Source of the DNA: Cetorhinus maximus | Lineage: Eukaryota | Assembly: GCF_964194155.1 (NCBI RefSeq) | Contig: NC_135902.1 | Coordinates: forward strand, 21,018,001-21,082,000 | Length of the DNA stretch: 64,000 nt | Direction of reading: 5' to 3' | In this document: piece after piece, positions 20,101-64,000 of the stretch | Numbering within the stretch: the stretch's first letter is position 1 | Layout: the number at the start of each line of letters is the position of its first letter | The notes under the pieces: model-generated | Told to the model about the DNA's origin: nothing | The model's database searches: none | Seen by the model: only the letters and a program-made list of their open reading frames with translations | Program-made: the position numbers and the translations under genes

Positions 20101-21940
20101 TTATTGTAGGTACCCCTACCTTGCCACCCAACCCCCAACCCCAGCAGTCATGTAATCTGGAAGAGACAAAAAAATAATAAAAACCTAGGCCTGAAAAATG
20201 GTGGAAAAAAATCTGGAAAATTCCTTTTTGATTTCCCCAGGCATTCAAAACCTTAACAGTTAACACTGACTCTGCAGTTGTAAACTGTTAATCCGCTCAC
20301 CTATATGTTCTAATCTCTGCCAGTCAGGAACTTGCTCAGCTCCCTGTTGAAGGCTTGGAGAGTGTCAGTACCCACTACAGCATCCAGTAACATGTTCCAA
20401 TGGTCCACTGCTCTATCTAAATGCATTTATTGAGAAGGGGCTGGATAAACGCATGAGAGAGAAATTAATAGAAGTGTATGTTGATAGGATTAGATGAAGG
20501 AAGGTAGGAGGAGGCTTGTGCAGAATATAAACAGCATGTGGACCTGTTGGGCTGAGTGACCTGTTCCTGTGTTCTAGAGTCTATGCTTATTCCCACTTCT
20601 GTGTGGTTTAAATGCTTGTCCACTAAATTTCACAGGATTGAGAATTTCATACAGTACTTCTTGGTATCTAATTTAGTAAACAGACCAGTATCAGATTTCT
20701 CGGTGGAACAGTGAGTAATTGTAATCCAGGTCCTTTCATAGGATGGGGAGTGGGTTGCAGGAAGAGTTGTGACTGATAGTTTCATTTTATAATTTCTGTC
20801 TTCTCTCCACCCCTTTTCCTCCCCCAAATAGTACGAAGTGTTGAAGATTCCAGAACCTGTTGACACACAGAAGGAGAAGATCAACACCCAGGAGCAAGAG
20901 GCTGTGAGTAACAAACCCTTTTTCTTGAAATTGACACAGGTCTATCATGTGGTACAGTCAAATCGACTCTTGGAATGCAATGGGTCTACATTCAATTAAT
21001 GTTTCCTTTTTATTCAACAGGATAAGAGTGCTCAGTCCTACGCCCAGGCTTCAAAGGAGCGGATTTCCAAATATGAGAAAGAGGTATTAAAACTGCATAT
21101 GGTACCAGCTGGTCCTGTGGGCACTGACCCTAGCTGGGCCCTGGGTCCTGTGGGCCCTTTGGGTGCTGACCCTAGCTGAGTCCTGTAGACGGGTCCCTTG
21201 GGCACAGATTGTTCTCTTTAACATTATGGGTGTGGCCATTGAGTGAGTTCCAGCCTGCTGTCTGGGGGCTTTACTGCAGCATTTGACCATGTCATCATTT
21301 GACAGTTACATGTGTATTTCCCAGCAGGAGTCTCTGAATGACATGAACCCTGGATGCTTTTACCTCCCTTATCATGACCTGAGTTGTGAAAGCAAATTTC
21401 TACCTTCTGAATCCTGTTAATTCAGCACCCCGTGATTGGAAATTTGGTTCCTTCTGGTCTGTAAGGCACCATTACATGTTGGCTTTACCACTGACTCCCT
21501 GGGAGAACTTAACCAGGTTTCACTGGACTAGTGTGTAACCATCACAGCCAAGTCCAACTCAGTCCTGTCCCCACCCAATATATATGCTCCTGGGAAGAGT
21601 AAAAAGTAGACTCAACAAGAACCTGCTCAGAGCCCAGTACTAATGAGGAGGGGGCTGTGTATTCGGTGGGGTCTGCAAGGTGGCTTTATATGATTAGGGT
21701 GGGAGAAATGGGTGTGAGTCCCTGGAGGGCAGATCTATATCCTCTGGTCACCAATATGCTGTAATGTGTACATTTATTAATTTGTTCTGCTCATTTGCTG
21801 TTTTCCAGCTAGCCAAATTCAAAAGCATGGTCCCATTTGACCAGATGACCATTGAGGATTTGAATGATGCTTTCCCTGAAACCAAACTGGACAAGGAGAA
21901 GTATCCCTTCTGGCCGCACAAGCCCATCAGTGAGCTGTAA
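14021..21940 (+). CDS. ATP5PD: ATP synthase peripheral stalk subunit d (ATP5H); coding exons 14021-14142, 19070-19166, 20832-20903, 21021-21083, 21809-21940; 486 nt = 161 aa
   Basis: Spliced translation MATRRVAMKAVDWLAFGERIPPNQRAMFNALKTRSDALSSR|LTSLPEKPPAIDWSYYRKVIVKAGMVDEFEKK|YEVLKIPEPVDTQKEKINTQEQEA|DKSAQSYAQASKERISKYEKE|LAKFKSMVPFDQMTIEDLNDAFPETKLDKEKYPFWPHKPISEL*; GT-AG introns with consistent phases. Confidence 0.97.
14660..17800 (-). mobile_element. Degraded near-full-length CR1 LINE in ATP5PD intron 2
   Basis: Fragments SLTNLLDCFEEVT...DVVYMDFQ, LYRTLVCPQLEYCIQFWAPHFRKD and ALGPDEMH; many frameshifts. Confidence 0.85.
17930..18590 (+). mobile_element. Penelope-like element fragment (RT piece plus terminal region)
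   Basis: PTYIRDSSD...LFLMDVQALHTSI...LAELVLS RT motif; hammerhead-like motif near 18503-18541. Confidence 0.7.
19070..19166 (+). CDS. ATP5PD: ATP5PD exon 3 (97 nt)
   Basis: CCCCACAG|G...AAG|GTGACA; LPEKPPAIDWSYY. Confidence 0.95.
20832..20903 (+). CDS. ATP5PD: ATP5PD exon 4 (72 nt)
   Basis: Polypyrimidine tract then AATAG|TAC...GCT|GTGAGT. Confidence 0.93.
21021..21083 (+). CDS. ATP5PD: ATP5PD exon 5 (63 nt)
   Basis: CAACAG|GAT...GAG|GTATTA. Confidence 0.93.
21809..21940 (+). CDS. ATP5PD: ATP5PD exon 6 (terminal coding)
   Basis: TTTTCCAG|CTA...CTG TAA; PFDQMTIEDLNDAFPETKLDKEKYPFWPH. Confidence 0.96.
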   Translation, partial: LAKFKSMVPFDQMTIEDLNDAFPETKLDKEKYPFWPHKPISEL

Positions 21941-21991
21941 CTGTCTCCTGCTCCAGCCTATGCTCTCTACAAATGTAACTGTCTCTTGTAA

Positions 21992-21997
21992 AATAAA
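21992..21997 (+). terminator. ATP5PD polyadenylation signal
   Basis: AATAAA about 50 nt after the stop, followed by GT-rich sequence. Confidence 0.75.
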
Positions 21998-24599
21998 AGT
22001 GTTGCATGAGTGTTCCCTCTGACCTCCCTCTCTTGGTGTGTTACCAGGAGCTGTACAACTGGCAACTTCTCCACTCAACTTAAATGAAACAAAATATTGC
22101 ACAAAGGGAAGGTGTATCTCCTTCACTTTTTCCTTCTCATCCTCTCTTGAAGAAGCTGACCTATTCTAGAGTACAGATCCGTGAGACTGCATGTTCCCCA
22201 GTATCTCATCCAGATGGTATTCTGTGAGATTCTAGAGGGTGTTAACAAACTATTTGGTGATGGGGGCATCACATAACTTGATTATCACTACAGAAATCAC
22301 TCAATGGAAGCAGGCATCCTGGTTGATTTACTCCCCTTCTGTCTGTTACCATTTGACATCAGTTTCTTCATCCAGTTTCAGTTAAAATAATGTTCTGGCT
22401 TCATCTTTTCTCTCCTGCTTGTACCTTGTACTCTGGTAGGCCCTCTTTCAATCTAAAGAGTTCTGAGTTTTGCTACTCTGTGTTCTGGGATCAACCAACA
22501 TCACTTAAAAATAAAGGCAGATTATATGGTCATTATCTAATTACTGTTTGTGGGAGCATGTGCATAAATTGACTGTAAACCGTTTTTGGCCATCCGAAAC
22601 TGGAAGGCGTAATATAAATAGAATTATTCCTCTTGTTGTGGATAAAAAAACCCAGTTACTGGAATGGCGTAAATACAGTGCAATACTTGTAATGACCCAC
22701 CCATGCTGATGTCGGTGGGGTTAAGTGCTTCAGACGTGACTCTAGGTTGTCAGTCTGCACCCCAGCAGGGGCTGCTGCAATATCTGTTTTACTCTTGCAT
22801 CTCTTTGTGTTGAAATCTGGGATTGTCTTTGACTAGGGGTTGATATTTATTACAGTGAAGGAGCTGTTCTGTGCAGCCACAGATATAAATCTTTGGCACC
22901 ACCTGCCAAATGTAAATGTTTGTTTGTAGTTGGCCATTTTATGCTTTAGTAAGTTTTTTTCTCTCCTGTTCCTCAACCAAGTGGTCATGCTACCTCTGTT
23001 AGACTGTAGATGCTGATGATCTGTTCCAGTGGAGTGGAATCGCTGCCTGATTTAAAAAGAAAAAATCCTTCCCTCACATCTATGTGAGGGACCAATGGTA
23101 TATCTATCACTGCCCTGGCTGAGATTACCTTACTCTGCAGAAGATGGGGGTTGAATTTAGGATCTAATGGTTTGTCTTGCTTGTTGCTTCAGCCCCTTGA
23201 GGCACTGGGGAAGGTTTTGTATGAATATTTGAAAAGATTTTTCTCCTGTTATAAATGATCTAATTATATAGGGTTGTTTCCCCTTTGCTTCAGGCATTCT
23301 TCTGACTAGAATGAAGTGTAAATGATGCTGCAGGACCAAATCACTCACTGGCTTCCTTGCTGCAAAATCGTGGGGAGTGTTCGGTTAGCTCCCGCTTTAC
23401 CAAACCAGCTCATGCAAGGAAGGAACTCCAAAGGGCTGAGAAATTTTCTGACTCAATAAAAGAGCAAATTGTACTGCCCAGTCATATAGGTTAGTAGCCA
23501 GTGAATGAGTTCAAATCCTGAATTCAGGTTGAAATATCTGGAATTAAAAGCTGGTGTCAATAAAAGTGATTATGGAGCTAAAAGCAAAATACTGCAGACG
23601 CTGGAAATCTGAAATAAAAACAAAATGCTGGAAAAACTCAGCAGGTCTGGCAGCATCTGTGGAGAGAGAAACAGTTAACGTTTTTGAGTCCATATGTAGC
23701 CTTCAGAGTTGATTATGTAGCTGTTGGATTGCCTTAAAAACCCAACTGGTTCAGTGTCCTCACCAATGTGATTGATTCTTAACTGACCTCTGAAGGGGTA
23801 TAGAAAACCAGCTAGTTGTTTAAAGTTGTTGCTACCTTCTTGGGACAGCTAGAGATTGGCAATAAATGCTGACAGTGCCAGCAATGCCCACTTCCCAAAC
23901 ATCTTTGTTCTTTCATGGAATGTAGGTGTCGTTGGAAAAGCCAACATTTGTTGCCCATCCTTAATTGCCCTTGAACTGTGTGACTTGCTAGGGCAGTTAA
24001 GAGTCAACCACATTGCTGTGGGCCTGGAGTTGCATGTAGGCCAGACTAGGTAAGGATGGCAGATTTCCTTCCCTAAAGGACATTAGTGAACCAGATAACT
24101 TTTTATGACCGATAGTTTCATGGTCACCATTACTGAGACTAGCTTTCAATTCCAGATTTATTAATTGAATTTAAATTCCACCAGCTGCCCCAGAGGATTA
24201 GCCTGGGACTCTGGTTTACTAGTCCAGTGACATTACCATTATTCCACTTTCTTCCTAAAACATAACTAATGTTGAGAGGGCCGAAGGACGTGGTGTTCGT
24301 AGTTCCCCATTCTGCCCTATTCCGCCCTTTAAAGTGAACTCAAATTCTTGCAGCCTTGGATCAGCCTGGAGAAGGAACTGCCCCAAGACTTGAAACACCT
24401 GGGTAGGCTGTTATAAGTCCTAGTGATGAGTTTGGAGGCCACGCTTCAATTTTGCTGGCTGTTGGCCCATGGTATATTGGCAATAATACTTAGAAAGGTC
24501 CCAGTATGGCTGTCATAGGGTCAGGAATTATGTCTCACTGGTGTAGTTGGAGCAGAGAGAAGGTGGGATGTTCTGTGGTTGGAACTATCACCTTAATGT

Positions 24600-24830
24600 G
24601 ACATTGTAGGGGAAATGTTGTCAAATGCTATACCCGATGGGAGTGTTTGGGCAGTGTAGAGGGAGCTTTACTCTGTATCTAATCTGTTCAGTACTTGCCC
24701 TGTGAGTGATGAAGCAGTGTGGAGGAAAATGTTACTCAATATCTAACCAGTGCCTTGCCTGTCCTTGGTGCGATTGGGACAGTGACGAGGAAGTTTTACT
24801 CTCTAACCTCTGCTATATCTGCCCTAGGCA
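24600..24830 (+). repeat. Degenerate ~65-bp satellite-like repeat (GAGGGAGCTTTACTCTGTATCTAAC...GGGAGTGTTTGATGGGACAGTGTA)
   Basis: 3-4 degenerate units; related units at about 18600-18800 (minus), 37160-37320 and 50050-50170. Confidence 0.6.
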
Positions 24831-25489
24831 TGTTTGACCAAGTGTGCTCCACATTCACAGTATCCAACTCTCCCTGTGACCATCTGACCCATTCCTGGTA
24901 TTTGGTCATCAGTTGTTTGCTCAGAGTCCAAGCTGCGGGGGCAAAATGCACTTTTACATACAGTTGTAACCTGGAGCTATGGATAGTGATAGTAGAAGCT
25001 CCAACATCCTTTCCATCACATGGCTGACCAAGAATCTTTCCCACTCTTCACTACCTGTCATTGGACTATGTAGGAAGAATTTGCAGGTTGATACTCAACC
25101 TGTTTGACAGCATTATAAATGCATCTTCTTTGGACGTCAAGTCCAAGGGAGGAACTTGAAACTTTCTGGTTCAGAGACAGGTACGCCATCATTGTGCCAC
25201 TAGACCGACCTAGGAGTGTTTGATTAGAACACTGGGTTGGAAAGTTTTCACTAATACTGTATCACTAATTGATAAAGCACAATATGTAAAAACAGCTGAG
25301 CTATTTAAACTCCTGATGCTGATCTTGGAAGGTATAAAACTTTGTTTTGACCCCTCAAAGCTTTTATACACGTGCAGCATCCTCATCCAGAGGTTGTGAT
25401 CCTACTGAGGTCCATGTGAGCAGTCAATTCTCTGTTGCGGGCTGGGGCAAGGGTATATCTGTCTCAGTGAGCCGAGGTGGCGAGTGTTC

Positions 25490-25603
25490 CTTTAAGAAGC
25501 TGGACCAGCGGGTGACGGGTGACTTGTCTCTTTAAAAGGGGCGGGGCAGCATCAGTCGCTGTCGATCCTTTTCCAGACGCTTCTCTATCAGTCTGGTGGG
25601 GAG
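25490..25603 (+). promoter_or_regulatory. Putative promoter/5'UTR of WBP2-like copy A
   Basis: TGACG half-CRE, TTTAAAA and GGGGCGGGGC GC-box upstream of the ATG; CpG-rich. Confidence 0.55.
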
Positions 25604-26164
25604 ATGGCGATCAACAGGCCGGGGGAGCCCGGTAACCAGAGGTAACCGGGGGCTTGTGGGGAGAGGGGAGCCAGGCCAGGCTCGGCTCAGGCTGCAGACA
25701 CGCAACTGGGCCCGGCTGGGAATTTACTAATATTTATTAATCAAGTTGATTATAATACTTGTATTAATTTAATCTATTAATGTGAATGATACTAACTGTA
25801 TTTATAAATTATAATATAGAATGATAACAGTATAAGAGGAGGCCGTTCGGCCCACAGTGCCCCTGCCAACTCTTTGAAAGAGTCCAGTTAGCCCCACTCC
25901 CCTGCACTTTCTCCATTCGCTTGCAATGTTCTCCCTTCAAGTGTTTATCTAATTCCCTTTTGAAAGCCACTATTGAATCTGCCTCCTCCACCATCTCAGA
26001 CACCACATTCCAGATCACCATGCTGTGTAGAAAAAAAAATCTTTTTTCCTCATGATAGCTCTGGCTTTTTTGTTAATTACCTTAAACCTGTGTCCTCTGG
26101 CTACTGACCTGCCTGCCAGTGGAAATAGTTTCTCCTTAGTTACACTATCATCTATAATTATTGA

Positions 26165-26530
26165 GTGTCAGCTTTGATATCACTCTTATCTCTGAGTTAG
26201 CACGTTGTGTGTTCAAGTCTCACTCCAGAGACTTCAGAACAAAAATCGAGGCTGACACACCAGTGCTGCTCTGTTGGAGATGCTGTCTTTTGGATGAGAC
26301 GTTAAACCAAGTCTGCTTTCTCAGGTGGCTGTAAAAGATCTTGTGGTACTTGTTCGTAAAAAATCAGGGGGGGACTTCTCCTCAGCAGCCTGGCTAATAT
26401 TTAGCCTCAGTCAAAATCACTAAAAAGCATATTATCTTATTATCACATTGCTGTTTGTGGGAGTTTGCTGTCTGTAAATTGGCTGCTGTGATTCCCACAT
26501 TGGTTGTAAAGCACTTTGGGATGCCCTGAG
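26165..26530 (+). mobile_element. DeuSINE-like SINE (counterpart in unit B at about 51866-52690, interrupted there by a CR1 piece)
   Basis: GTTCAAGTC-CACTCCAGAGAC head and GTCTTTTGGATGAGACGTTAAAC core. Confidence 0.7.
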
Positions 26531-27156
26531 AAAGGAAAAAGAAAGATTTGCATTTATATAGCACACTTCATGACCACCAGACATCTCATAGCACTTTAAA
26601 GCCAATAAAATAGTTTTTGAAGTGTAATCACTGTGGTAACATAGGAAAGGTTGCGAAAGTTGCTTTGTGAATGAAAGATTTTCTTTTTTAACTCCTTGAT
26701 CAAATCTCTTAACATTCTCTAAGGAGAACAGTCCCAGCTTTTGCAGTCTCTCTGCATAACTGAAGTCCTTCATTCCTGGTATAATTCTAGTAAATCTCTT
26801 AATTATATTCTGTCCAAGACCATGACTCCCTTCCTAAAGTGATGTGCCCACAATTGATCACAGGACTCCAGCTGAGGCCTAACCAGTGTTTTATAAAGAT
26901 TTAGTATAACTTTCTTGCTTTGGTACTCTCTGCCTCTGTTTATAAAGCCAAAGATCCCATAAGTTTCTTAGCAACCTTCTCAATTTTTATTCCACCTTCA
27001 AGTATTTGTGTATGTGCATCCCAGACCTCTCTGTTCCAGCATCCCCTTTCAAGTTTATATCGCCTCTCCTGATTCTTTGTACCAAATTGTATCTCTTCAC
27101 ACATCTCTGCATTAAAATCCACCTGCCACGCATCTGCCTATTTCATCAGTCTGTGT

Positions 27157-30100
27157 CAGGGGTGGGCAAACTTACTTAAGAGCAGCGCACGAGAATGTTC
27201 ACATATTCGAGAGCCGCAAGACATGGACAAACTTTACACAGGCTAATTGCTCCTAGTAGTAAGGCCTTGTGGGTCTCCATCCTGGCTGTAAGTCTTTGAA
27301 AATCTGGCTGATGTATTGTCAAGGCTCTATGAAGAAGCTCTGTCAGGTGTTGATTTGCAAGGACTGCAAGGTGTTTCGATTTTACAAACTTCAATACGGA
27401 GTACAGCGATTCACAGCAGTATGTTGTACTGAATCATGAACGGGTTTACAAAAAATGGTGAAGCAGGATCTCAACTTCTGCAAGTCATCAAACCTGGCTT
27501 GAAAATGATCAAACAATCCTCGTAATTTATCCCTGTGTTCTTCGAGTTTGTGACCTTTTGCTTCAAATCAGGGAACATGTTTACCCTCCTTTTGACATGG
27601 GGAAAGTGGTTTAAGTTTCTTGACAAGTATATCTCTTTGCAGAAGCCTTACTTTATTCTGGAAACTGAAAACTGTCTAAGGTCAGAAATAACCTTATCCT
27701 TCACCTGGAGTGTCAAATTGAGAGTTTGTAGATGCTGCATAATATCAGTGAAAAACATCAAACCCTGCATCCATTCGTTATCTTCCAGCTGTGGATAGGA
27801 TCTTTTCTTCAACAAAAATAATGATTGGCTCCAACAGTTCCACAAACCTATTCAAGATATTGCTGGTTGACAACCTCCTCACAATGCAGTAGAAAGGGAC
27901 TTCGTCAGATTTGTCTTTGAGATCCAGCTGTTCAGTAAAATTTTTGAACTGTCGGTGAGTCTTCCCATTTGAGCGGATGAAATTGACAAAGACTGTTTTC
28001 ACAACATTTTTGTATTTGAAGTATCTGGCTGCTAGATGTTCACGATAAATGCTGCAATGAATAGGGAGAAACTCTGGAAATTTGGGAGCATTTTTCAAGA
28101 GTGCAATTAGGTCTACATGTTTCCCCAACATTGAAGATGCTCCATCCGTTGCAACACTGACAAGTTTATCTAGTGATACTTTGGCATTTCTCAACGTTCT
28201 GTCAAGTGTATCTTTTATTTCAACACCACGAGTTGTTTCTTTTAGCGCCACTAAGTCCAACATTTCTTCTTTCACAAATACATCTGAGGAAACATAACAA
28301 ACAAATGTCGCCAGTTGTGGGTTGTCTTGTAAGTCTGTGGATTTATCAAGAACTAAGCTGAATGCTAACGAATTGCATCTTGCTTGCAACACCAGCACTG
28401 ATCTAGGAGATGCACCTCTCCGTAGTATGGTGTGAAATTGGAATTTGTGTTATTAGTCACTGAAGTTTTGTGTTCTTTGGATCTAAAACTGCAACAACCT
28501 CAGCAATATTCTTCTTATCAAATTCTCCATCAGAGTATGGGCGTTTAGCACGAGCACAATTCCATGCCATAACAAAGCTAGCTTCGGTTGTTGTGTCAGC
28601 TTCCTTATTGAACATTGAGAGTAGTGTCTGCTGACTATTTTGGGATGATTTTAAGATGGTTAACTTGTTTTTCTGTAATTCTGATTTAGGAGGATAGTCA
28701 GATGAAAAGTTTTGTGATTTGTTTCGTAGTGGCATTTCAAGTTACTGGCTTTATAGTGAGTGAGTGATGCATTGCAGATAAGGTATATAGGTTTCCCACC
28801 TTTAACGGTGAATGTAAAATCTTCCTCCCATTCTGGCTTAAAACTTCTGTTTTCATCTTCATACTTTTGTTTCTTACAATTTTGACAATGTCATTTTCGT
28901 TCAGGAAGTTTACACGGGGTTAACAGTTTTTTTCCTCCTTAACCTTCCAGGCTTCAGAAAATGGCCACTGAGAGTCACTTGGGGAAACTACACAAGAAAT
29001 CTCGCGACAATGTTGGAACGAATCGGTAAATAGGGGAATAGGAAATCGTGAGATTTCTTTTATAGTTCCCCCTTGGTCCTCCATAGGGCCACGTGAGTCT
29101 GTGATACGAGTGTATTTAACAACAAAGGATGTTGTTTTGGTCATTTCTGTTCGGACTCACTACACAATCTTCAAATGTTACATGGTTGGTGAAGTGAGCC
29201 CTGTAAACTCAAGAGAACTTCAAAATACACCTTTTTTTAAAAAAAAACTTTTAATAGGTGCCCTGGTAACTTCTCTTTGCCACGGATTTAAAAAAAAACA
29301 TCTTTGGAACTGAATCTGGAATTTTTTTGTTTGACATTAAATTTGAAACAAGCAGCAATGAAAGCACCCAGAAGTGTTTATTTTAAAATGGAATTTTATA
29401 ATAAAAATTGGGTTCCTCCTTTCTTTGATATTGTCAGGGGCAATAAAAATAGAAAAACCAAAAAGGTCCAATTATTAATCTGGCCTCTGTCATCTGCCCT
29501 CAGGGTGAGCAGGTAAGAGTAAGGTGGAATGGATGGAATGTTAAAAGTTAAGTGACTGGCAACAGAGCAAGAGGAAAAATTTCCATTTTCAATATGGTCA
29601 AAACACCCGGCCAAATTTTAAGTATCAAACATTCACTCCCTGTGAACAAACCCTTTCTAATCCCCCTCCCTTGCCTGTAAAAGCCCCCCTCCACCTACCC
29701 CAACGAGCAAATTGCTTCCCAGCTATCTAATTCTGTACTCAAAGTCTAATTTCCTCTCCCCATGAACAGACCCCTGTCTAAATACCCCCTCCCATGAACA
29801 GACCCCCCCTATCCAAGAACTCCCTGAGAACAGATGCTGAGCTAGACTTTGACTTAGTGTAATCATGCAACCTGGGTGTTTGTGAACCAACTGTCCAGAA
29901 AATGTGAAGAAACAGCTAGAAACATGGAGAGAAGATAGAGATAGAGTTGCCTGCGGGTCTTTTACCTCCAAGAATCACCCAGACCCTGATCCTTGTAAAA
30001 ATTCTACAGACTGCCTTAAACATAGATGACTCCCCTCTGTCCCTCTCCCATTCACTGCCGCCCACCGACCCTCCCCACCCCCACGCCACCCGTACCCACT

Positions 30101-31211
30101 CAGTCCACGATTGGTGTTGTTTGTACATTAAATATTAACAGCGAACCTTCCACTTGTAGCACAGTTCGTCTCTCTCTCTCTCTTTCCTCCCCTCCCTCTC
30201 TCTCTTTTCCCCCCCCTCCCTCTCGCTCTCTTTTCCCCCCCCTCCCTCTCTCGCTCTCTTTTCCCTTCTCACTCTCTTTCCCCCCTCCCCCATCTTAAAC
30301 AGAGTAGCACATTAAGAGCTCAGGATACACGCTCTCAATTACGCATTCTCCTCATAACATTTCAATAGAGAAAAAAAACTCAGTTATAAGCTAGAGGCTT
30401 AAAAGTTTGAGACACAGTTGCGTCCACCTTTATGTAATATCTCACTCTGTGTTTCTTGTTATCTCTCTCTTTGTATCCTGTCTCTCAGTTCCTATCTCTC
30501 CCCTGTTCTTTCTCGTTCTCTCCATTCCTATCTCATTTGCTTCTTTTTAACAAATTGTCATGTTTTTAATTTGTCATGTTTTTAATTTGTCATGTTTTTA
30601 ATTAATAGAGGGAGTTAGAGAGTGGGCTAAAGGGGGATAGAGAGACAGAAACAAATCCCCCCACCCCTCAGATCCTCAGTAAACTGAATTCAAAAGGCCA
30701 CCATATATCTCATTTAGCCTTTACACAGATTCAGGACATTAATTTAAAGCCCTTCCAAGTGTTTTGAGGATATCTCCCCTTGCTCTGTTGTCCATTGCTT
30801 CACCTTCCATCCATTCCACTTCACTCTTACCTGCTCACCCTGAGGGCAGGTGACAGAGGCCAGATGTCCGCTCGTGTTCATCCTAAATCTATTTCTGTCC
30901 TCCTCTTTTATCTATTTTCTTCAAATGAAGGCTTTGTTTGCTTTCACAATTCAGCTCACTTGCTTTGCATTAAATAAATATAAATATGTTGGGAAAAGTT
31001 ATACTATCTGCTATTTAACAGCGTGTCTCTTTCTTTCTATCTCAATCTGTCTGTATTGTGTTGTGAATGGAATAGCTGGGATTTTTAATCAAAGTGTTAA
31101 AGCTCCCCTTCAGTTTGATGTTACCTCCTCCAAAGCGCTATTAGCCAGCTATGCAGCACAGGGGAAGAGCTGCACTCTATGGATTGGCAAACTGCATTTT
31201 GGCCACTTCTG
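27157..31211 (-). mobile_element. hAT DNA transposon (Charlie/SPIN/GTF2IRD2-like transposase pseudogene at about 27250-28895) in intron 1 of WBP2-like copy A
   Basis: TIR CAGGGGTGGGCAAACT vs ATTTTGGCCACTTCTG (12/16); 8-bp TSD GTCTGTGT/GGCTATGT (6/8); peptides ENRSFKPEWEEDF...LIC...SNLKCHYETNH, FSLVLDKSTD, SVATDGASSMLG and IHCSIYREHL; absent from unit B. Confidence 0.88.
30168..30293 (+). repeat. Pyrimidine-rich (CT/CCCT) low-complexity tract
   Basis: Almost pure C/T run. Confidence 0.8.
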
Positions 31212-32399
31212 GGCTATGTCCTCTTGATGTCTGTTATCATTTCCCCCCAACTGTTTACCACGTTTTCGAGTTGTATCATCAGTGAACTAAATTATTACTT
31301 CCATACCCAATAGTCTGCCCAATACAAAGAAAGTGTAGAGGGCTTTTTGCTCACTGTTATTAAAGAGTTAATTGGACAGCAGTCTCTGGCAGAAGCACAT
31401 TCACATTTAAATGTGGAAATTAGAAGTTGTTGTTGCAAGAGATGCCACAGGGTGTGCTCATCAGTCCTCACTAATAGACTCAGCATTTTAAGACATGCAG
31501 TGGTGTGAACTTGGGTAATGCCCGCCAGTTTTCCCCTAAAGATGAAATTAAAAAGGCTGTTGCATTCAGGAATGAGTGAATTTTTAATGATGTAACAAAG
31601 AATCTCTCTAGCCCTCAAAATGTAATTTTATAAGTGTGGAGTCCAATTCCTTCAGAAGATTTGTTGAAGATTTAAAAAAAAGATTTAAATGATATTTACC
31701 TTTTTTGTCTGTCTCTCAATCACATCTGTCTTCCCTGATCTTTATTCTGCTTCTTGTACATGATTTAAATCTAATTTATGTTCCGGCTTTATACTTCCTA
31801 GTTTAGACTCTGCATGGCTTTGTGAGGATTCTTCAATCTGATTGATTGAGCAGCCTTGCTGTTGCTTGCCCTGCTCACAAATGCCCTGTTGTGGATTAGA
31901 GTTTGTCTCTGCTCAAAACCTCACTAAAACGTGGGTAGTGTTGGCAAGGTGAGCAATCTCCTTTCCCGGGTGGCCTATGAATCCAAACTCCCCTTTTAAT
32001 TTTTATTCAATCCAATATCACTACTGCTTCCTCCTACTTTGGCAGCATCGTCTTCGCTAGTGAAAACAATGCCTCATTTAGTGTCTCAACCATACCCTCT
32101 GTCCACAAAGCCTTTTTGGTTCTTAATTACCCCCACCCTTCTTTAGCTACATTTTTACCATTTATATGTTTATAAAAGACTTTTGGGTTCCCTTTTACAT
32201 TAACCTTTTTACATTAACCTTTTTACATTAATCCGTTCTTATACTCTTTTAGCCCCTCATTCCTTTTTTTAAGACCTCCTCTATTTTCTACATTCAGTTT
32301 AGTTCTCTAATGTATTGAGAACCTTACATTTTCTGTTTATTATATTAATCTATAATTACAGAATTTTACATATATTAATTATTTATATTCATTATATTA

Positions 32400-33960
32400 T
32401 TAATAATGACTACATGGTATATGCAGCACCGAAATAGGCCATTCTGCCCAATCAGTTCATGCTAGCTTTTATGCTCCATTTGAGCCTCCTCTTATCCTTC
32501 CTCATCTATCAGTACAATTCTCTATTCTCTTCTCCCTCAAATGTTTGTCTTGCTTCTCTTTAAATGAATCTGCACTATTTACCTCAACCACTCCCAGTGG
32601 TAGCAAGTTCCGCATTCTCACCACTGTTAGGGAAGTCAGAAGAAACATCTTTATGCAAATTGATTTCTTGGTGATTATCTTCTATTGGTAATTCCTAGTT
32701 TTGCCCTTCCCCATAAGTGGAAACACTCTGTGTCTATCCTGTCAAAATATCTCAACTTCAAGGACCTCTATTAGATCACCCCTCATCCTTCTTATTTCAA
32801 GAAAAAAGAGACCCAACCTGTTCATCCTTTCCTGATGGATATAAGTTTGCATTTATAGTATCATCCTAATAAATCTTTCTTGCACCCTCTTCAATGATTT
32901 TGTATGCTTTTTATAATACGACAACAAAAGCTGTTCACAGTATTCCAACTGTAGTCTAACCAAGTTCAATACAGGTTTAGCATAACTTCTCTACTTTTCC
33001 ATTCTATCCTTCTAGAAATAAACCCTAGTGTTTGGTTTATAAGAAAGCAAATAGGAGCATGGGTAGGCCATTAAGCCGTTCAAGCCTGCTCTGACATTCA
33101 ATTAGATCATGGCTGATCTTGCATCTTGCCTTCACCTTCCTGCACTAACCCCATATAGCTTGATTTTCTAATATTCTAAAAAAATGTAGTGGTCTCTGAC
33201 ATGGATATACTTAACAACTGAGCATCCACACCTCTCTCTGGTAGAAAATTCCGAAGGCTCAAAACCCTTTGAGTGAATAAATTTCTCTCTTCTCAGTCCT
33301 AAAAAGCTGACCTTTATTCTGAGATTATGGCCCCTATTTCTAAACGCTTCAGCCAGGGGAACCGTCCTCCTAGTACCTACCCTGTCAAGCCCCTTAAGAA
33401 AGTTATATGTTACAATAAGATCACCTTTCCATTCTGCTAAACTCTAGGGAATATAAACTTAGTCGACTCACTTGCTCATGATAGGACAATGGCCACATCC
33501 CAGAAGTCAGTATCATGAACCTTCGTTGAACACTTTCTAAAACAAATATATCCCCACTTTGGTAAAGAAACTGCAACTGTAAACAGTACTCCAATTGTGC
33601 TCTCACCAAGGCCCAATACAATTGCAGTACGACTTATACTAATATTCAAACCCTTTTGTAACATACCATTTGTCTTCCTGGTCCTTTGCGGTACCTGTAT
33701 GTTAACTCCCTATGATTCATGTACAAGGACACCCAGGTCCCTCTGAATATCAACGTTTCCCAATCTCTCACTGTTTAAAAAAAATATTTATTTTATTTCT
33801 GTTTTACTAAGCAAAGTGGATAACTTAATATTTCATATTTGTTCAATGTACTTGCCCACTTGCTTAACCTGTCTATATTCTTTTGCAGCCTCTGTGTCCT
33901 CCACACAGCTTACTATCCCGCCTAGCAGCAAACCTGGATATTTCATATTTGATCTCCTCA
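32400..33960 (-). mobile_element. Cluster of CR1 LINE 3' fragments
   Basis: LVRAQLEYC...LESVQRRF peptide; repeated AGGCCATT...GCC CR1 3'-UTR motifs. Confidence 0.7.
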
Positions 33961-34729
33961 TCTAAATCAGAAAGAAAAATGAAAGACTTGCATTTATATA
34001 GCATTTTTCATGACCACTGGACATCTCAAACTGCTTCACAGACAATGAAGCACTTTTAAAGTGCAGTCACTGTTGTAATCTAGGAAATGCAGCAACCAAT
34101 TTGCACATAGCAAGTTCCGACAAACGGCAATGTGATAATAACTAGATAATTGTTTTTGTGATGTTGATTGAGGGACAAATATTGGTCAGAACAGTGGGTA
34201 TAACTCTCCTCTTCAAAATAGTGCTGTGGAATATTTTACGTCCACCTGAGAAGGTCCTCAGTTTAGTGTCTCATCAAAAGACAGCATTGCGGATAGTGCA
34301 GTATATTAATTGTGAATAGGTGAGGCCCAAGCAGGTGCCTCACTAACTCCAACCCGAAAATGGTCTGTTTATTCTTTCTCTGTTTCCTATCCATTAACCA
34401 ATCCTCAACCCCTGCTAATATACTACCCCAATCCCTTTTGTTAAGGCCTTATTAACTTCCATCACAACTTAGTGATTTGTGTATCTGTACTCTCAAATCC
34501 CTTTGCTCCTCGAGTGGTTAGGATCTTGAACGCATTGCCTGAAAGTGGCAGATTCAATCGTGGCTTTCAAAAGGAAATTCAACAAGCAACTAAAGATGGA
34601 AAATTTGCAGAGTGATGAGAAAAGAGAAGGAAAGGGGAGTGGGACTAGCTAAGTTGCTCATGCACAGAGCCGGTATGGACATGTTGAGCTGAATGGCCTC
34701 ATCCTGTATTGTAAACATTCTGATTCCAT

Positions 34730-35385
34730 ATCTCCAGCGGCAGCATGGAAGGAGCAAGACATATAAGTTAAGAGCCACGGTCACCTTGACATCCCCAGTC
34801 AATGCTGCCCTTGCCCTGCTTTGAGGTCGCAGTTGTGGCTGCAGCAGATGGCAAATTTCAGTCATCACCTCTTTTGTGACGTGAAGCCGTCTCGAGCATT
34901 GGTCCATGCTGAAGTTGAGGTAAGAGAATTGCTCCTTAAACACCCTCTGTGGATATGGCCCACTACTGAGAGCCTTGCTCTCTCCTTCTCCTCCTCCTCC
35001 CTCTTTTAGTGGCTTGTCCTGCTCTGTATGTCTCTCTGTTCATTCAGTTATGCTGAATTCCTAGAGGAAGGCCAACCAGGCACCCATGTCTGCAAGCAAC
35101 CTGTTTCAACACAAGCTTTTAAATACATGAAATTTCAGTACCAGCTGGACCATTCCTCTAGACAATTCAAACTTTGCCAAGTATAGGAAAACTGCAACAG
35201 CCAGAAGAGCAACTAACCTATAAGTAGTTCATGATCCCTTTAAATAACGGTACTGGGAGGCCCCGCATGCCATTTAACATGCTTTCAGCATAGGCCGGAG
35301 TGTGGAGTTCAAAACTAATTGATGTCATAACCTTCCTGCTCTGCATACTGCCTGCTCTTGGTTTTTGCATGGATGCACCCAACAT
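34730..35385 (-). mobile_element. PIF/Harbinger transposase (HARBI1-like) fragment
   Basis: SYLNFSMDQCSRRLHVTKEVMTEICHLLQPQL...VKVTVALNLY resembles the Harbinger DDE nuclease N-terminal region. Confidence 0.65.
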
Positions 35386-35953
35386 TTTTTCTTGTTGGGA
35401 TGTGGTCATCACTGGCAAGACCAGAATTTATGGCCCATTCCTAATTGCTGTTGAGAAGGTGGTGGTGAGTCACCTTCAACCACTGCAGTCCATGTGGTGT
35501 AAGTACACCCACAGTGCTGTTAGGGAGAGAGTCCCATGATTTGATCCCGCGACAGTGAAGGAACGGCGATATATTTCGAAGTCGGGATGGTTTGTGACTT
35601 GGAGGGGAACTTACAGGTGGTGTTCCCATGCATCTGCTGCCCTTATCCTTCTAGGTGGTAGAAGTCGTGGGTTTGGAAGGTGCTGTGGAAGGAGCCTTGA
35701 TGATTTGCCGCAGAACATCTTATAGACAATACTCACTGCTGTCATGGTGTGCTGGTAGCGGATGCTTAAGGTGGTTGATGGGGTGCTGAACAAGCAGGAT
35801 GCTTTGTCCTGGATGGTGTTGTGTTTTTGGAGCTTCACTCAACCAGGCAAGCAGAGAGTATCCCATCAAGCCCCTGATGTGTGCCTTGTAGATGGTGGAC
35901 AGGCTTTGGAGAGTCAAGAGGTGAGTTACTTGTAGAACTCTCCGCTCTTGTGT

Positions 35954-35989
35954 GTATATATATATATATTATATATATTTATATATATA
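35954..35989. repeat. (TA)n microsatellite
   Basis: Imperfect TA run. Confidence 0.8.
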
Positions 35990-36049
35990 GTTGTCTCGCT
36001 AAGTCTTTGATAAATGATAACCCCAATTTCAAACAGTATCTGTTTCCCT

Positions 36050-36225
36050 GTCAAAAACAGAACCAGAAATACCTGGAAAAACTCAGCAGGTCTGGCAGCA
36101 TCGGCGGAGAAGAGCACAGTTGACGTTTCGAGTCCTCATGACCCTTCAACAGAACTAAGTAAAAATAGGAAAGGGGTGAAATAGATGTTTTGGATTTCCA
36201 GCATCCGCAGTTTTTTGTTTTTATC
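36050..36225 (-). mobile_element. Penelope-derived terminal fragment with a hammerhead-like motif
   Basis: CTCAGCAGGTCTGGCAGCATC...GTTGACGTTTCGAGTC family; other copies at about 2931, 18500, 18860, 23580 and 50250. Confidence 0.65.
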
Positions 36226-36806
36226 TCTGTTTCCCTGTGCTCCTCCCCCTATTCCACCTCTGTATCTTTTGATCTGCAGCCACTGATAGATATTTAAGGG
36301 GTAGGCTTCTTCAATCTTCATTACCAGCAAATGTGTCAGAAATCAAAACACAAGATTCCCTCAACAGTTGTCACAGAATAACACTGAGTAATGCACACCA
36401 GCAGGTGCCAGGCACTTTTTCAAGTGTGTGCTGGTCTCAGCCAGGGTGCTATAATAGTTCACAGCTTCATAACATTGTGTAAAAAGGATTCTCCTACTCT
36501 CTGCCCCAAAAACCATATTTAAATCTCTGCCCCTTCAATCATTCCTGGTTGCTCTCCAGTGACTCCTGCCAGAAAGTACATGGATGGATAGCAGGTACCC
36601 AATAGCCCACTGGCGTTCACTATCTAGGCTGTTGGCCTGAATGAGGTAGTGGAGAAGTGCATGTGAAGCTGTCCTCTAAACCTCATGAGTGACAATCCCA
36701 CTCAAGGTGATCAGGGGGAATCCGCTCAGTTACAGGGCAGTGTAAGAGGTAGGTGCCCCTATTTGAATGTGATGTAACATTGCACCCCTGTTTCCTGTGC
36801 TTGCAG

Positions 36807-36915
36807 CTTGCTGATGTTTTACGACCATGTAGAGCTGTCATTCAGTCATGGGAACGCCATATTGGAGGCTTTCAAAGGCTCAAGGAAGGGAACTGTTTAC
36901 TTGATGCCATACCCA
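36807..36915 (+). pseudogene. WBP2-like copy A exon 2 (109 nt)
   Basis: TTGCAG|C...CCA|GTAAGT; YDHVELSF...[11 protein letters not shown]. Confidence 0.88.
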
Positions 36916-37429
36916 GTAAGTAACATTGCCCCTTCCACATCTGAGAAATACTGAAAAGTGCTCATGTTCATTCCTTCATTTAATAAACATATAGGCTTTT
37001 TATTTTCACGTACATCACCCAACAGTCACCACTTATCAGTATAAAAGTTAGAATGGAAATTTACCTTTCACTCCATGTACCAGGGTTCAGATCCAGACTA
37101 GATTAATGGCATGAAACTCTCCTGGCTTCTTACAGCATGGATTAGATGCAAAGTAAACCTTCTATAGTGTGAGTGTTTAATGGAACAATGCAAAGGGAAC
37201 TTTACTCTTTAACTAACCCATGCTTTACGTGCCCTGGGAATGTTTGAATAAATTGTAAATGAAAGCGTTATTCTGTATCTAACCTGTGCAGTGCCTGACT
37301 TGGGAGTGTTTGATTCTGATATTGGATAATTTATTCCTCAACAATAATGTTTTTCACCCCGAGAATTGGTTGGGGGGTGGGGGGGACATTCTGTACATTT
37401 TTGCAGTGTGATGACCTTTCACCCTGATA

Positions 37430-38345
37430 CATTACAGAAAGGAAAATTTGTAATTTTTTTAATGTTTGTGGAATCTAATTATTTTTAAGAATGTTTGAGT
37501 AAGAACTATTAAGAGTTTATATCAATTGGAAAAGGATAATTTGTAATTTTCCTGGATATTAAGAAATACTCGTCCACGTGTAACCTGGCAACCCTTGACC
37601 TGGAAGCAGTACCAAGGGGAAGAAAGTTAAAATACAGACGCTATCTGGCCAGACACTAAGGAAGAGCTATAAGCAGAGGAGCTAGAGGGTAATGGCCCAG
37701 ATGCAGACACAAAGAGAAAGGAGACAGAAAGAGGAACACAGAGAATTAGGAGAAGTGAATCACACTCAGGAAGAGGTCAACTTTTCTATTTGACAGAAAC
37801 GGAGACAGGAGCTCTCTGAGGTACTGTGCAAGCTGGCTAAGGTCTAAAACATGGAATGGCTCAGAGATGCTAAAGAGCTGGGTTTTTTTCCAAGAAGCTG
37901 CCAAACTTTGAACTGGGGTGTTATTGGTTGGTCGGTTGAAAGGGAATTCTGGAATGCTACACCATTAGGACTGTCGTAACCTGAGAGAGAGAGGGTTTGG
38001 AGAAGTGTGCCTTGCTGATGATAATTGTACCCATGAAACTCGAGGGTGAAAGTTGTCGGATAGGACTCCCGACCTATCCTGTGTGAATAAACAACTGCAT
38101 ATTGTGGAACTGTAGTGCCACATTTGTGTGGGGAGCGATGCGAATGCTTGTAGTAGTGTAAAATGTATCTTTTGTTGTATTGATTACTTAAAGTGAAGTT
38201 TTACTTTAAGCGTCATTTGCCTGTTAATTCATGTGTAATTTGTGTTGGTTCTGGTTCATGTTAAAATAAAAGCTACAAAAAGTGGAATCTTGTTGGCAAT
38301 TTCTTCATTTGGGTGTTATTCAGTAAATGTCATTATTTTTATGGT
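37430..38345 (+). mobile_element. LTR-like insertion in intron 2 of WBP2-like copy A
   Basis: Absent from the paralogous intron in B (674 vs 1646 nt); TATAA at about 37668 and AATAAA at about 38265; termini uncertain. Confidence 0.4.
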
Positions 38346-38561
38346 TCCCCTACCTGTACCCACCAGTTCTGTACCCCAGTGTTATACAATGATGGACCTA
38401 TACCCACCTGTACTATAGTCCTGGGTTACCCCCAGGATTAACACACATACTGTGTTAAAGTAACCCTGCCCCCAGCAGTGATAGAAATGTACATATGTAA
38501 CTGGATGCATTTGTTTCTCATATTCTATGCCATAATCCTCTCCTGCTCCTGTGCTTTGCAG

Positions 38562-38702
38562 GTAGTCTTTGTGTCAAAAGATAGCAGAAAGGCACTGAAA
38601 TCCTTCGTAATGCCATTTTCCCTGATGAAGGGCTGTAAGATCAAACAGCCAAAAGCTTAGGGCAAGCTACATTCAAAGGAACCATTGATGCTGAGCCAAA
38701 TG
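38562..38702 (+). pseudogene. WBP2-like copy A exon 3 (141 nt, frameshifted)
   Basis: TTTGCAG|GTA...AATG|GTATGC; 2 nt longer than the copy B exon; in-frame TAG. Confidence 0.85.
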
Positions 38703-41325: not shown

Positions 41326-41418
41326 GAGGATGGGAAGGTTCTGCAAAATTTAGACTTACTTTCACCATTGGAGGAGCCATTGAATTTGGACAGCTGATGT
41401 TACGGTCGGTATCACAAG
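41326..41418 (+). pseudogene. WBP2-like copy A exon 4 (93 nt)
   Basis: CCACAG|GA...CAAG|GTGTGG; GGWEGSAKFRLTFTIGGAIEFGQ. Confidence 0.88.
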
Positions 41419-41651
41419 GTGTGGCTTCACTCACTCGCCCTGCAGGCTTCCGCTCTGTCTCTCATGGCCCCACAGTCCTGACCCCACTCACTCTCCATGC
41501 TTTTTTTTTCTCCTTTATTCTTTGTCCCCGTATTTCTCAAAGCTGCTGATTCTTGCTGGGGTTCTGGTTGCTGTTGGGAAAGTTGTCTGTCCAGATGCTT
41601 AATGAGGCAAACCGTGGGGATGGACTACCCTTTACACATCCACTTATAGTG

Positions 41652-42080: not shown

Positions 42081-42594
42081 TTGAGAGCATTGTCCCCTGG
42101 GATCACTTGGTAAGCAACACTAGGAAATGTTTGGGTCCAAAGTCAATCATTGGTCCATCACAAAGAGTGGGTACTGGAAAAGGAGGGATTTATAACTTTT
42201 GGTTCATGGTAACTGATGAATCTGGAGTTCCTGATCTGTCCGGTACCCATAACTATTCATGTGCTGAGGGCTGAGGTTATTAACTGGTTTCTTTCAGCAG
42301 TGCGATCGAATTTGTTGACTGGAGTTAAATGGCTGCCTCCCATTCCTATGTTTCTTCTTATATTTCAGTTGTGCGATATTGGTCTGTGACCAACTGATCC
42401 AAGTTTGGCTGAATATTGGATGTGGCCCATTTCGTGGACCCTCAGGATTGGCTTATTACCAGCTCAGGGTTCATTTCACATTGACCTTCGGTGATGAAAC
42501 CATTTGAATTCGTTTTTACTCTAACATTTGGCCAATGACCCCTAGTGTCTCCCAATCAAAATGAAATATGGAATAACTCAAGGTCTCATCATTG

Positions 42595-42798
42595 GGGGCA
42601 CAGTACTGGTGGGGACTCTGTCACTGCAAAACACAGAGGTATAGTACTGGTGGGTATAGGTCTATTGCTGCATAACACAGGGGCATAGTACTGGTGGGTA
42701 TAGGCCTGTCACTGTATAACTGTAGTACGTTACAGGTCTGTCACTCTGTAACACTGAGGTACAATACTAGTGGGTACAGTCTGACACAGTATAACACT
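42595..42798 (-). repeat. Same ~44-bp minisatellite in reverse orientation, abutting the duplication junction
   Basis: CAGTACTGGTGGGTATAGGTCTGTCACTGTATAACAC-like units; weaker copies at about 38350-38420 and 58170-58260. Confidence 0.8.
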
Positions 42799-45700: not shown

Positions 45701-45946
45701 TTTACTAGTGTGCTGTAACATGTATGTTTACTCATTGTTCTGCTCATTGTTTTCCAGCTGGTGAAATTCAAAAACATGGTCCCATTTGACCAGATTACCA
45801 CTGAGGATCTGAACGATGCTTTCCCTGAAACCAAACTGAACAAGGAGAAGTTTTCCTTCCAGTCACATAAGTCCATCAGTGAGGTGTAACTGTCCCCTGC
45901 TGCAGCCTGTGCTCTCCACAAATGTAATTGTCTCTTGTAAAATAAA
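42799..45946 (+). pseudogene. Partial duplicate of the ATP5PD 3' end: truncated exon 5 (42799-42828, in-frame TAA), intron 5, exon 6 copy (45758-45889) and AATAAA (45941-45946)
   Basis: AAGGAGTGGATTTCCAAATATTAAAAGGAG|GT aligns to 21054-21083; exon 6 copy LVKFKNMVPFDQITTEDLNDAFPETKLNKEKFSFQSHKSISEV* with 18 of 132 nt different; intron homology 42930-43268 to 21220-21560. Confidence 0.9.
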
Positions 45947-50588: not shown

Positions 50589-50701
50589 CTTTAAGAAGCT
50601 GGACCAGCGGATGACGGGTGTCTGTCCCTTTAAAAGGGGCGGGGCAGCATCAGTCGCTGTCGATCCTTTTCCAGACGCTTCTCTATCAGTCCGGCGGGGA
50701 G
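50589..50701 (+). promoter_or_regulatory. Putative promoter/5'UTR of WBP2-like copy B
   Basis: Same motifs as copy A in near-identical sequence. Confidence 0.55.
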
Positions 50702-62500: not shown

Positions 62501-63520
62501 CAGTAACACTTCTGTTAATCAAAAGTGCTACCCCTCCTTTTTTCCTTCCTGAACACTTTGTACCTGAAATATTGACCATCTAATCTCCCCTTCTTTGAGC
62601 CATTACACCACATTCCCACGTAGCTGTTTGTTCCTGCAGCTCAAAAACCTTATTAATCATACTTGTGCATTTACACATGTGCAGTCCAAACCTAACTTAG
62701 ATCTCTTGATATTTTCCATGGTCCCATCTGATTCTATATTATTTCGAACTCTAATTGTCTCCCCTAGTCATCTATGCACCTTTTTTCTACTTTTAAATAA
62801 TACTTCTTGGTGAACGTGTCCCAGTGCTGCAAAAATCTGAAACCTTCCCTTCCCTACTGTGTCTCTCTCTCTCCACGCATTAACCTCCTATTTCTAGTCT
62901 CCATAACGCATGGCACTAGAGGTAATCAAGAGGTTATATACTTTGAGGTCCTGCTTTGAACTTCCTCCCTAGCTCCTTAAACTCTGATTGCAGGACCTCA
63001 GTCCTCTTCTTTCCTGTGTTGTTGGTTCATGACATCTGGCTCTTCCTCTTCCCCGACAATATTCTACACCATCCCTTACCCTGGCACCAGGGAGGCAACT
63101 TCCCATAAGGGTCTCATATAGGTGGTAGCAGAACTGCCTGTAAGTCCCCTTGATTATCAAATTCCCAATTACTACTGCATTCCTACACTTTGTTGTACCA
63201 CCCATGTAGTCCTTTGCCTCATAGTCCTAGACTTGGGTTTGCACCCCATCAAAGGTCATTGCACTCAGCCACACTCAGTTCTGAATATGGATTTGAGTGA
63301 CGCATCTGCTGGAGGATTCCAGTATTGCCCGTCTCTTCCAACCCTTATGGCTGCCCACTTTCTATTCTGATCTCTGTTTGTGGGGGTGACCACTTCCTAA
63401 AACCTGTGACTTGCAAACAGTCAGCCACCATATGTCTTGCAGTGAATCCAGCTGTCTCTCATGCTCAGAAGCCTTCAGTGTAAGAGTGGCTGGAGGCACT
63501 TCCTGCAAAGATAGGCCTCA
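59600..63520 (-). mobile_element. Degraded long CR1 LINE including an ORF1 SGNH/esterase remnant, in intron 3 of WBP2-like copy B
   Basis: VVIGNLIIKG...CLPGARVRD ORF1 motif and [12 protein letters not shown]2 motif; a paralogous ORF1 remnant is at about 38800-39470 in unit A. Confidence 0.8.
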
Positions 63521-64000
63521 GGGACTGATGGGGCTGGATTTTACAGGGCACTGAGGCTCCTGACCCCAAGCTGAAATGTCAGCAGGAGCCTACCCAGTTG
63601 AGGTATGGCTGCCCTGCAGCTATTTAATGTCGATTGGCCATTAATTGGCTGGAGACAGGACTGCTGCCCAACAGGGACAGGAAATTCCACGTCAGAGCTG
63701 CTGGCCAATCAGAGGCTGGCAGCTGCCCAGTACCAGCAATGCCACTGAGCAGTGGCCATTGCTAGTACTGCACTCAAGCAATGAGGAGACGAGCTGTGCC
63801 GGATCATGTAAGTGCATTTTTTGGTTCATTTATGGAATGTGGGTGTTGCTGACTAGGATAGCATTTATTGCCCATCCCTAACTGCCCTTGAGAAGGTGGT
63901 GGTGAGCTGCCTTCTTGAACCATTGCAGTCCCTGAGGTGTAGGTACACCCACAATGCTGTTAGGGAGGGAGTTCCAGGATTTTGACCTAGTGACAATTGA

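Follow-up and report, generated by a model that had tools for sequence, protein, structure and literature searches.

A WBP2–ATP5PD chimeric gene formed by tandem duplication in sharks: a probable spliced transcript in the past and a broken long form in Cetorhinus maximus

What becomes of two broken gene pieces when a tandem duplication cuts through the end of one gene and through an intron of another? The question is raised by a stretch of 64,000 nucleotides from Cetorhinus maximus (NCBI RefSeq assembly GCF_964194155.1, contig NC_135902.1, forward-strand positions 21,018,001 to 21,082,000; G000:C25:21018001-21082000 in our coordinates), which is called the window here and in which a second copy of the start of a WBP2-like gene is followed by a second copy of the end of ATP5PD. 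The window was compared with itself, with the 4.0 Gb genome and with an extended sequence that adds the 200 kb downstream of it (264 kb; extended coordinates). From these sequence comparisons we conclude that the two pieces probably form one chimeric gene, which was once transcribed and spliced, likely still gives a GRAM-only protein in carpet sharks and has its long form broken in the present genome. The chimeric gene is made up of the following parts.

25531..25673, + strand: CpG-rich promoter and exon 1 tract, with coding exon 1 at 25604-25641 and a paralog at ~50630-50771.
36807..36915, + strand: exon 2, from WBP2, open and ending in phase 0.
38562..38702, + strand: exon 3, with 1-base insertions at 38651 and 38672 and a stop at codon 82.
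41326..41418, + strand: exon 4, the last from WBP2, ending in phase 1.
42799..42828, + strand: remnant of ATP5PD exon 5, intronic, with a GT donor, without an acceptor and with a stop in the ATP5PD frame.
45758..45946, + strand: duplicated ATP5PD exon 6, the terminal exon, with an acceptor and AATAAA at 45941.

Exons 1–4 of the upstream WBP2 copy all have GT–AG ends, and the duplicated exon 6 is open over 43 codons in the ATP5PD frame and over 10 residues in the shifted frame. Since exon 4 ends in phase 1, a transcript spliced from it to exon 6 would be translated through the ATP5PD sequence in the +1 frame, where a stop within this last exon follows the tenth residue. The phase 0 end of exon 2 means that an exon 2–6 splice retains the frame of ATP5PD, and this exon 1-2-6 form is open today over 92 codons in the C. 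maximus genome. We regard this anatomy as almost certain. In the scheme that we propose, a tandem duplication put the WBP2 promoter and exons 1–4 before a second ATP5PD exon 6 with its poly(A) signal and left both parents intact, and the resulting chimeric gene was transcribed and spliced; at birth, the exon 4–6 product would have been a GRAM domain with 10 added residues, its stop lying in the last exon. An earlier reading of the window from its sequence alone, here the original prediction, had counted one intact ATP5PD, an orphan ATP5PD tail and two WBP2-like genes as the products. The intact ATP5PD and one full WBP2-like gene stand, the upstream WBP2 copy has exons 1–4 of 8 only, and the supposed orphan, with its acceptor and poly(A) signal, is better described as the 3′ end of the chimeric transcript.

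The duplication that brought these parts together consists of two units, which are adjacent, collinear and on the same strand, with a single junction between them.

21054..42798, + strand: duplication unit 1, 21,745 bp, from the end of ATP5PD exon 5 to WBP2 intron 4.
42799..~73031 in extended coordinates (~G000:C25:21091030), + strand: duplication unit 2, 30,233 bp in total.
42596..42801, + strand: junction, where a minisatellite-like repeat within WBP2 intron 4 meets ATP5PD exon 5.
27158 to ~29080, − strand: DNA-transposon-like block private to unit 1, with a 223-codon frame and DUF4371 just below cut-off.

As the original prediction had proposed, 42799-42828 copies the end of ATP5PD exon 5 (21054-21083), with 26 of 30 bases equal and a GT donor following (E value 4e-4 against the 264 kb), and collinear homology extends from there. 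In the self-BLAST, an ascending diagonal from 21202/42913 to 38888/63023 accounts, by our count, for 17 of the 91 listed matches (67–87% identity), a few of which fall in shared repeats. Past position 64000, unit 2 and its diagonal continue for ~9 kb, to 42595/72941 in extended coordinates, and just two copies are present in the 264 kb; a third tandem unit was not found in the 200 kb downstream of the window, and genome searches in which the best candidates only were scored gave no further copy of WBP2 exon 3 or exon 4 on the same contig (C25). The ATP5PD exon 1 region and exons 2–4 have no second copy in the 264 kb (best other matches at E values of 0.49–0.93), so exons 2–4 do not recur upstream of 42799. 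Between the units, exon paralogs are 86–90% identical, except for WBP2 exon 1, which is identical; the exons differ at 58 of 473 columns and the non-coding blocks at 851 of 4654 aligned columns, giving a Jukes–Cantor distance of 0.21 that is a lower bound, the blocks having been chosen by BLAST. The private transposon insertions noted before are also present, the DNA-transposon-like block in unit 1 and, in unit 2, a long interspersed nuclear element (LINE) with reverse transcriptase (48312 to ~49912) that faces an empty site in unit 1. This LINE appears young, having an open reverse transcriptase frame of 444 codons, a simple-repeat 3′ end and a 3-base target repeat.

The claim that the duplication is no assembly artefact is borne out by contigs that bridge the junction at 42799 in four of the four runs compared (X1, X5, X7 and X8), which come from three organisms. 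The contig of X1, possibly the source of the assembly, crosses the junction with 0 differences, and those of X5 and X8 (organism B) and X7 (organism C) are ~97% identical across it. The breakpoints lie within two parallel-oriented genes, in ATP5PD exon 5 and WBP2 intron 4. The sequence left of the junction is WBP2 intron 4, which aligns with intron 4 of the downstream gene as far as the minisatellite-like repeat, and the AAG at 42799-42801, a 3-base overlap, is carried by both parents; joining by 3-base microhomology may be suggested from this, as a suggestion only. The repeat belongs to a dispersed minisatellite-like family (296-430, 1663-1871, 2692-3358, 38352-38417 and 42596-42798) that is very deep in the aligned contigs, and its array at 42596-42798 forms the left edge of the junction. 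Could the locus nevertheless be an artefact, or debris that was dead on arrival, with a broken WBP2 fragment beside an unused ATP5PD tail? The frameshifted exon 3 and the stop within the exon 5 remnant in Cetorhinus would fit such an origin; however, the bridging in three organisms does not, nor do orthologous open frames in another order, and a spliced, poly(A)-tailed retrocopy contradicts it. We therefore find this explanation barely credible.

The retrocopy answers the question of whether the chimeric gene was ever expressed, since it preserves the form of an mRNA.

G000:C21:15721914 onward (L029 415 to ~768): retrocopy of the chimeric mRNA, intronless, with exons 1, 2 and 6, the 3′ untranslated region (UTR) and a poly(A) run.

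Searching the genome with exon 6 yielded five matches, one of which is the C21 retrocopy. Without introns, with a poly(A) run and at a dispersed location, it is a processed pseudogene, and it joins exon 1, exon 2 and exon 6 precisely at the splice sites. In exon 2, 9 of its 13 diagnostic bases, derived ones included, are those of the upstream WBP2 copy; in exon 6, 13 of 22 are those of the duplicated exon, with which it groups in a five-row tree (support 99/97). The order from the upstream WBP2 copy to the duplicated exon 6 is the sole one that allows cis-splicing, which supports the chimera as the source of the retrocopy. The retrocopy differs from the present chimera at 32 of 343 bases, contains its own stop and would have roughly half the age of the duplication; its flanks hold a possible 8-base repeat with one mismatch, which is weak. 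Because the retrocopy is inherited, it implies germ-line transcription of the chimera at that time, and it speaks for the past only. One spliced and polyadenylated transcript across the junction is thus recorded for the past by the retrocopy, and exon 4–6 splicing is indicated indirectly by gene models of carpet sharks. The genome also holds retrocopies of ATP5PD itself: one at L002:1238-1770 (C19) is near full length (89.5% over 544 columns) and is followed after ~450 bases by what looks like a CpG-rich gene start in L002, one at L028:558-805 (C9) is 5′-truncated and runs from exon 5 (93%), and one at L037 (C10) contains the 3′ UTR only.

Is the chimeric gene confined to Cetorhinus? Short ‘WBP2-like’ models of 85–161 residues are found in Mustelus asterias, Hemiscyllium ocellatum, Chiloscyllium punctatum, Stegostoma tigrinum and Rhincodon typus. 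In all of these but Rhincodon, the short model and the full gene lie on equal-sized contigs; in Rhincodon, the contig of the short model is not equal in size to that of the full gene, which is there a partial gene on a 50 kb contig. The models of the whale, zebra, bamboo and epaulette sharks appear to encode the exon 4–6 form, a GRAM domain with a tail from ATP5PD in the shifted frame. Among 37,421 AG sites, none fits the tails of P0258, P0181 and P0257 as well as the acceptor at 45758, with 3–4 changes in 27 nucleotides (null mean ~13); this acceptor is among the 4 best sites for P0163 and among the 12 best for P0089. Six registers were allowed at every site in this test, null included, the carpet-shark exon 4 being two residues shorter; in a fixed register, P0163 and P0089 gave no match. 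P0258 ends in PDDH, exactly at the second stop of the ATP5PD +1 frame, and the tails are built of 11-residue units, three in the whale and zebra sharks and two in the bamboo and epaulette sharks. In carpet sharks, the first stop would have been lost and an 11-codon (33-base) unit repeated in tandem, giving tails of 26–37 residues; we infer both the stop loss and the repeat from the proteins.

The six chimeric copies, those of the five relatives and of Cetorhinus, form one clade with support of 100/96 when exon 1 is included and 99/97 when it is excluded, in trees computed without NL_Panthera and, for the tree without exon 1, also without ray_Narcine. A duplication private to the Cetorhinus lineage is rejected by the approximately unbiased (AU) test (p-AU 0.022), which does not reject an origin that predates the squalomorph split (p-AU 0.30). 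The derived residues S54, K59, S69, K75, K80 and R82 are common to at least four of the five other chimeric copies and occur in no full-length shark gene. These observations point to a single origin before the split of Orectolobiformes, Lamniformes and Carcharhiniformes, which the portion of the preprint cited here places in the Early to Middle Jurassic (bioRxiv 10.64898/2026.02.13.705779), so that the duplication would be at least that old. The event had been taken as old from its exon identity, and a copy common to three shark orders makes it older than the 86–90% suggests. Among the matches listed for squalomorph sharks, rays and chimaera there were no chimeric models, in word-limited searches that also missed the full gene of many sharks. 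Residue 46 is L in both copies of the zebra and whale sharks (P0181, P0258, P0164 and P0166) and M in the other sharks aligned, possibly owing to a second conversion tract or to parallel change.

If the gene is this old, the state of its reading frame bears on whether its protein mattered. In Cetorhinus, the exon 3 insertions at 38651 and 38672 are present in X1 and absent in X5 and X7 (one contig each); X5 (organism B) has an exon 3 stop of its own at codon 78, and exon 3 of X7 (organism C) is without a stop. The long form is thus broken in Cetorhinus and in organism B, exon 3 is open in organism C, and the frame is open in four carpet-shark models. That the long form is lost in Cetorhinus we consider highly probable. 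The three breaks (in Cetorhinus and two relatives) all fall on terminal branches (P ~0.015) and none on the long ancestral branch, for which 4.5 are expected (P 0.012), both under rough neutral weights; this pattern suggests a frame maintained until recent times. Four carpet-shark genera have kept it over at least 29 crown replacements, with 5.5 breaks expected under neutrality (P 0.004). The pairwise dN/dS (nonsynonymous to synonymous rate ratio) between the copies is 0.098/0.176, and it is the chimeric copy that has taken most of the replacements. The GRAM domain scores above the Pfam cut-off in all eight proteins scanned, with chimeric proteins scoring as high as the full gene. The structure modelled for P0163, at a modest predicted local distance difference test (pLDDT) score of 60, shows seven strands with an end helix that continues into the new tail; it matches PH-like folds and is taken here as consistent with such a fold only.

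Several observations weigh against the chimeric gene as we read it. First, the C21 retrocopy records exon 2–6 splicing and not exon 4–6 splicing, no retrocopy containing exon 3 or exon 4 was found in the genome searches, and a 3-base overlap adjoining a repeat is weak evidence of mechanism. The 92-residue protein of the exon 1-2-6 form was also not found among the 17 protein matches listed, 12 of which were inspected, nor among the earlier short-relative matches. In the relatives, the Mustelus model begins within exon 2, and its tail of 4 residues fits 983 sites equally well and WBP2 exon 5 better; no chimeric model was found for Scyliorhinus or Chiloscyllium plagiosum, for both of which full genes were found. 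The carpet-shark proteins are database gene models that were found through open frames, so that frame statistics are biased, and the survival of their frame gives P 0.12–0.24 when nonsense changes alone are counted. Lastly, 20 of 107 residues changed on the Cetorhinus branch, which is about neutral (0.187 versus 0.198), chimeric copies change two to three times faster than the full gene, and changes avoid conserved columns weakly (p 0.04–0.14 in four tests).

Much of this would suit a chimeric pseudogene that was transcribed throughout, with mRNA made from the copied WBP2 promoter, a protein that never mattered and frames that survived by chance in slow-evolving sharks. The near-neutral amino-acid rate on the Cetorhinus lineage, the weak site-class signal, the independent breaks in Cetorhinus and organism B, the 5′-shortened Mustelus model and the failure to find any model in catsharks all favor it. 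However, such a history would have to account for an ancestral branch without a break, a frame kept in four carpet-shark genera in which the visible changes of protein length are all frame-preserving, and GRAM scores equal to those of the full gene, and we judge it unlikely. Selection on the protein in carpet sharks, as read from these frames, is in our opinion somewhat more probable than not.

The promoter differs from the rest of the duplication in its likeness between units. Over the 143-base promoter and exon 1 tract there are 3 mismatches, and the next best 140-column window has 14; the binomial probability at the exon rate is 1e-5 for a tract that was picked after inspection. Its observed/expected CpG ratio is 0.65 versus 0.24 for the window, and the retention of its CpGs suggests a promoter that escapes methylation in the germ line. 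The two Stegostoma copies agree in their derived exon 1 residues. Gene conversion is the explanation to which we incline by a little; constraint on a second first exon or an enhancer is plausible to a lesser degree, and a low mutation rate is the least likely. If constraint held, the selected unit might be regulatory, with the duplicated promoter and exon 1 acting as an upstream first exon or enhancer for full WBP2 and the chimeric frames riding along. This idea gains from a tract far more alike than any other stretch, with its CpGs kept, and from an exon 1 that ends in the same phase and could be joined by splicing to the second exon of the full gene. It loses from the Stegostoma residues, which, if the models assign exon 1 correctly, point to gene conversion and not to parallel constraint, from the need of such a transcript to pass the poly(A) signal at 45941 and from the kept frame of exons 2–4 in carpet sharks, which it leaves unexplained; we see it as quite improbable. 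The chimeric gene with a likely protein product in carpet sharks remains our preferred reading.

What such a protein would do can be approached through the part that it lacks, as the chimeric proteins have neither the proline-rich region nor a PPxY motif. WBP2 binds WW-domain proteins via PPxY motifs and is degraded by ITCH through them, according to the part of the review cited here (PMC8625973). Without PPxY motifs, a variant would be unable to bind YAP/TAZ, ITCH or other WW-domain partners, and, if driven by the same promoter, a GRAM-only form would compete with or modulate full-length WBP2 through the GRAM domain. We know of no binding partner of the GRAM domain, and this predicted role as a competitor is a doubtful one. 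In its boldest form, the prediction would be a shark-specific Mesozoic gene that encodes a PPxY-less WBP2 antagonist with an alternative-frame ATP-synthase C-terminus, extended by the 33-base repeat and selected in carpet sharks as a Hippo/YAP regulator; in the Cetorhinus lineage, the other frame would give a 92-residue WBP2–ATP5PD fusion peptide, with the promoter kept in step by gene conversion. This combination as a whole is speculative and we think it unlikely.

The parent genes and the neighboring gene lie as follows.

14021-14142, 19070-19166, 20832-20903, 21021-21083 and 21809-21940, + strand: coding exons of intact ATP5PD (161 amino acids), with AATAAA at 21992.
50702-50739, 57634-57742 and 58417-58555, + strand: exons 1–3 of the full WBP2-like gene, which has 8 exons in total.
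12560-12769, − strand: BTB/POZ exon, head to head with ATP5PD across a CpG-rich promoter; presumably KCTD2.

The ATP5PD exons have GT–AG ends and give an open frame, with Pfam Mt_ATP-synt_D on exon 6. Intact ATP5PD is without several bases just after its AATAAA (21992-22010) that are present in the duplicated exon and in every retrocopy, so that a recent small deletion near the cleavage site seems to have occurred. Exons 4–8 of the full WBP2-like gene lie beyond the window at G000:C25:21087240-21099726, and its spliced translation is P0001 (Cetorhinus maximus, 284 amino acids), with a GRAM domain (PF02893) and a proline-rich tail carrying two PPPY motifs. The midpoint-rooted trees are compatible with this downstream gene being the orthologue of human WBP2 and also with its being that of WBP2NL; a WBP2NL-type exon 3 match lies at L025 (G000:C30:111431-111556), and a more divergent WBP2-family exon 3 match at L027 (G000:C15:94892911-94893042). 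We take WBP2 and ATP5PD to be linked on human 17q25. Two inverted repeat pairs, 29478-29544/30799-30865 (92.5%, around 1.3 kb) and 54138-54216/54394-54473 (88.8%, around 0.2 kb), are possibly non-autonomous DNA elements.

To our knowledge, few old chimeric genes of vertebrates have a history that can still be read. In this locus public data show the junction, the intact parents, the fossil of a spliced mRNA, the growth of the tail out of a shifted frame and the separate recent losses, so that the birth, elaboration and death of a gene can be tested in one place. The GRAM-only protein, if made, would be a natural deletion variant of WBP2 and could show the role of the poorly studied GRAM domain; the junction and the number of tail repeats offer clean presence/absence markers for shark phylogeny; and the database label ‘WBP2-like’ misses the ATP5PD origin of the short models. 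Among the papers listed, no earlier description of the locus was found, subscription journals and genome-paper supplements lying outside the scope of the search; the mechanism is known and the gene is apparently undescribed.

In the sections of the Drosophila surveys cited here (PMC4069613), tandem duplications with both breakpoints in same-strand genes form chimeric genes. As in those chimeras, the downstream gene contributes the 5′ part and the upstream gene the 3′ part, and the parents stay whole; the Drosophila chimeras are young polymorphisms, whereas the shark chimera is fixed across three orders, reads its donor exon in either of two frames and has given rise to a retrocopy. The human SRGAP2C, ARHGAP11B and NOTCH2NL–NBPF fusions, as far as the cited parts of PMC6169893 and PMC5142801 describe them, likewise keep the promoter, lose 3′ exons and gain a new terminal exon or C-terminus, and for these 3′-truncated duplicates, too, a domain-lacking protein is proposed to act differently from its parent. 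They are human-specific and recent, and some have a tested function, while the shark event is Mesozoic with a predicted role only; unlike theirs, the shark tail arose by overprinting a housekeeping exon in another frame and was lengthened afterwards by a 33-base repeat. The RCCX module with TNXA and STK19B, in the portion of PMC8362596 cited, resembles the shark locus in a junction that leaves two truncated pieces and in gene conversion between units; TNXA and STK19B are truncated non-functional pieces, whereas the shark pieces lie on one strand and were spliced together. Finally, the WBP2/WBP2NL family, as outlined in the cited part of PMC8625973, combines a GRAM domain with a PPxY-rich tail, and the shark chimeric protein shares the GRAM domain only.

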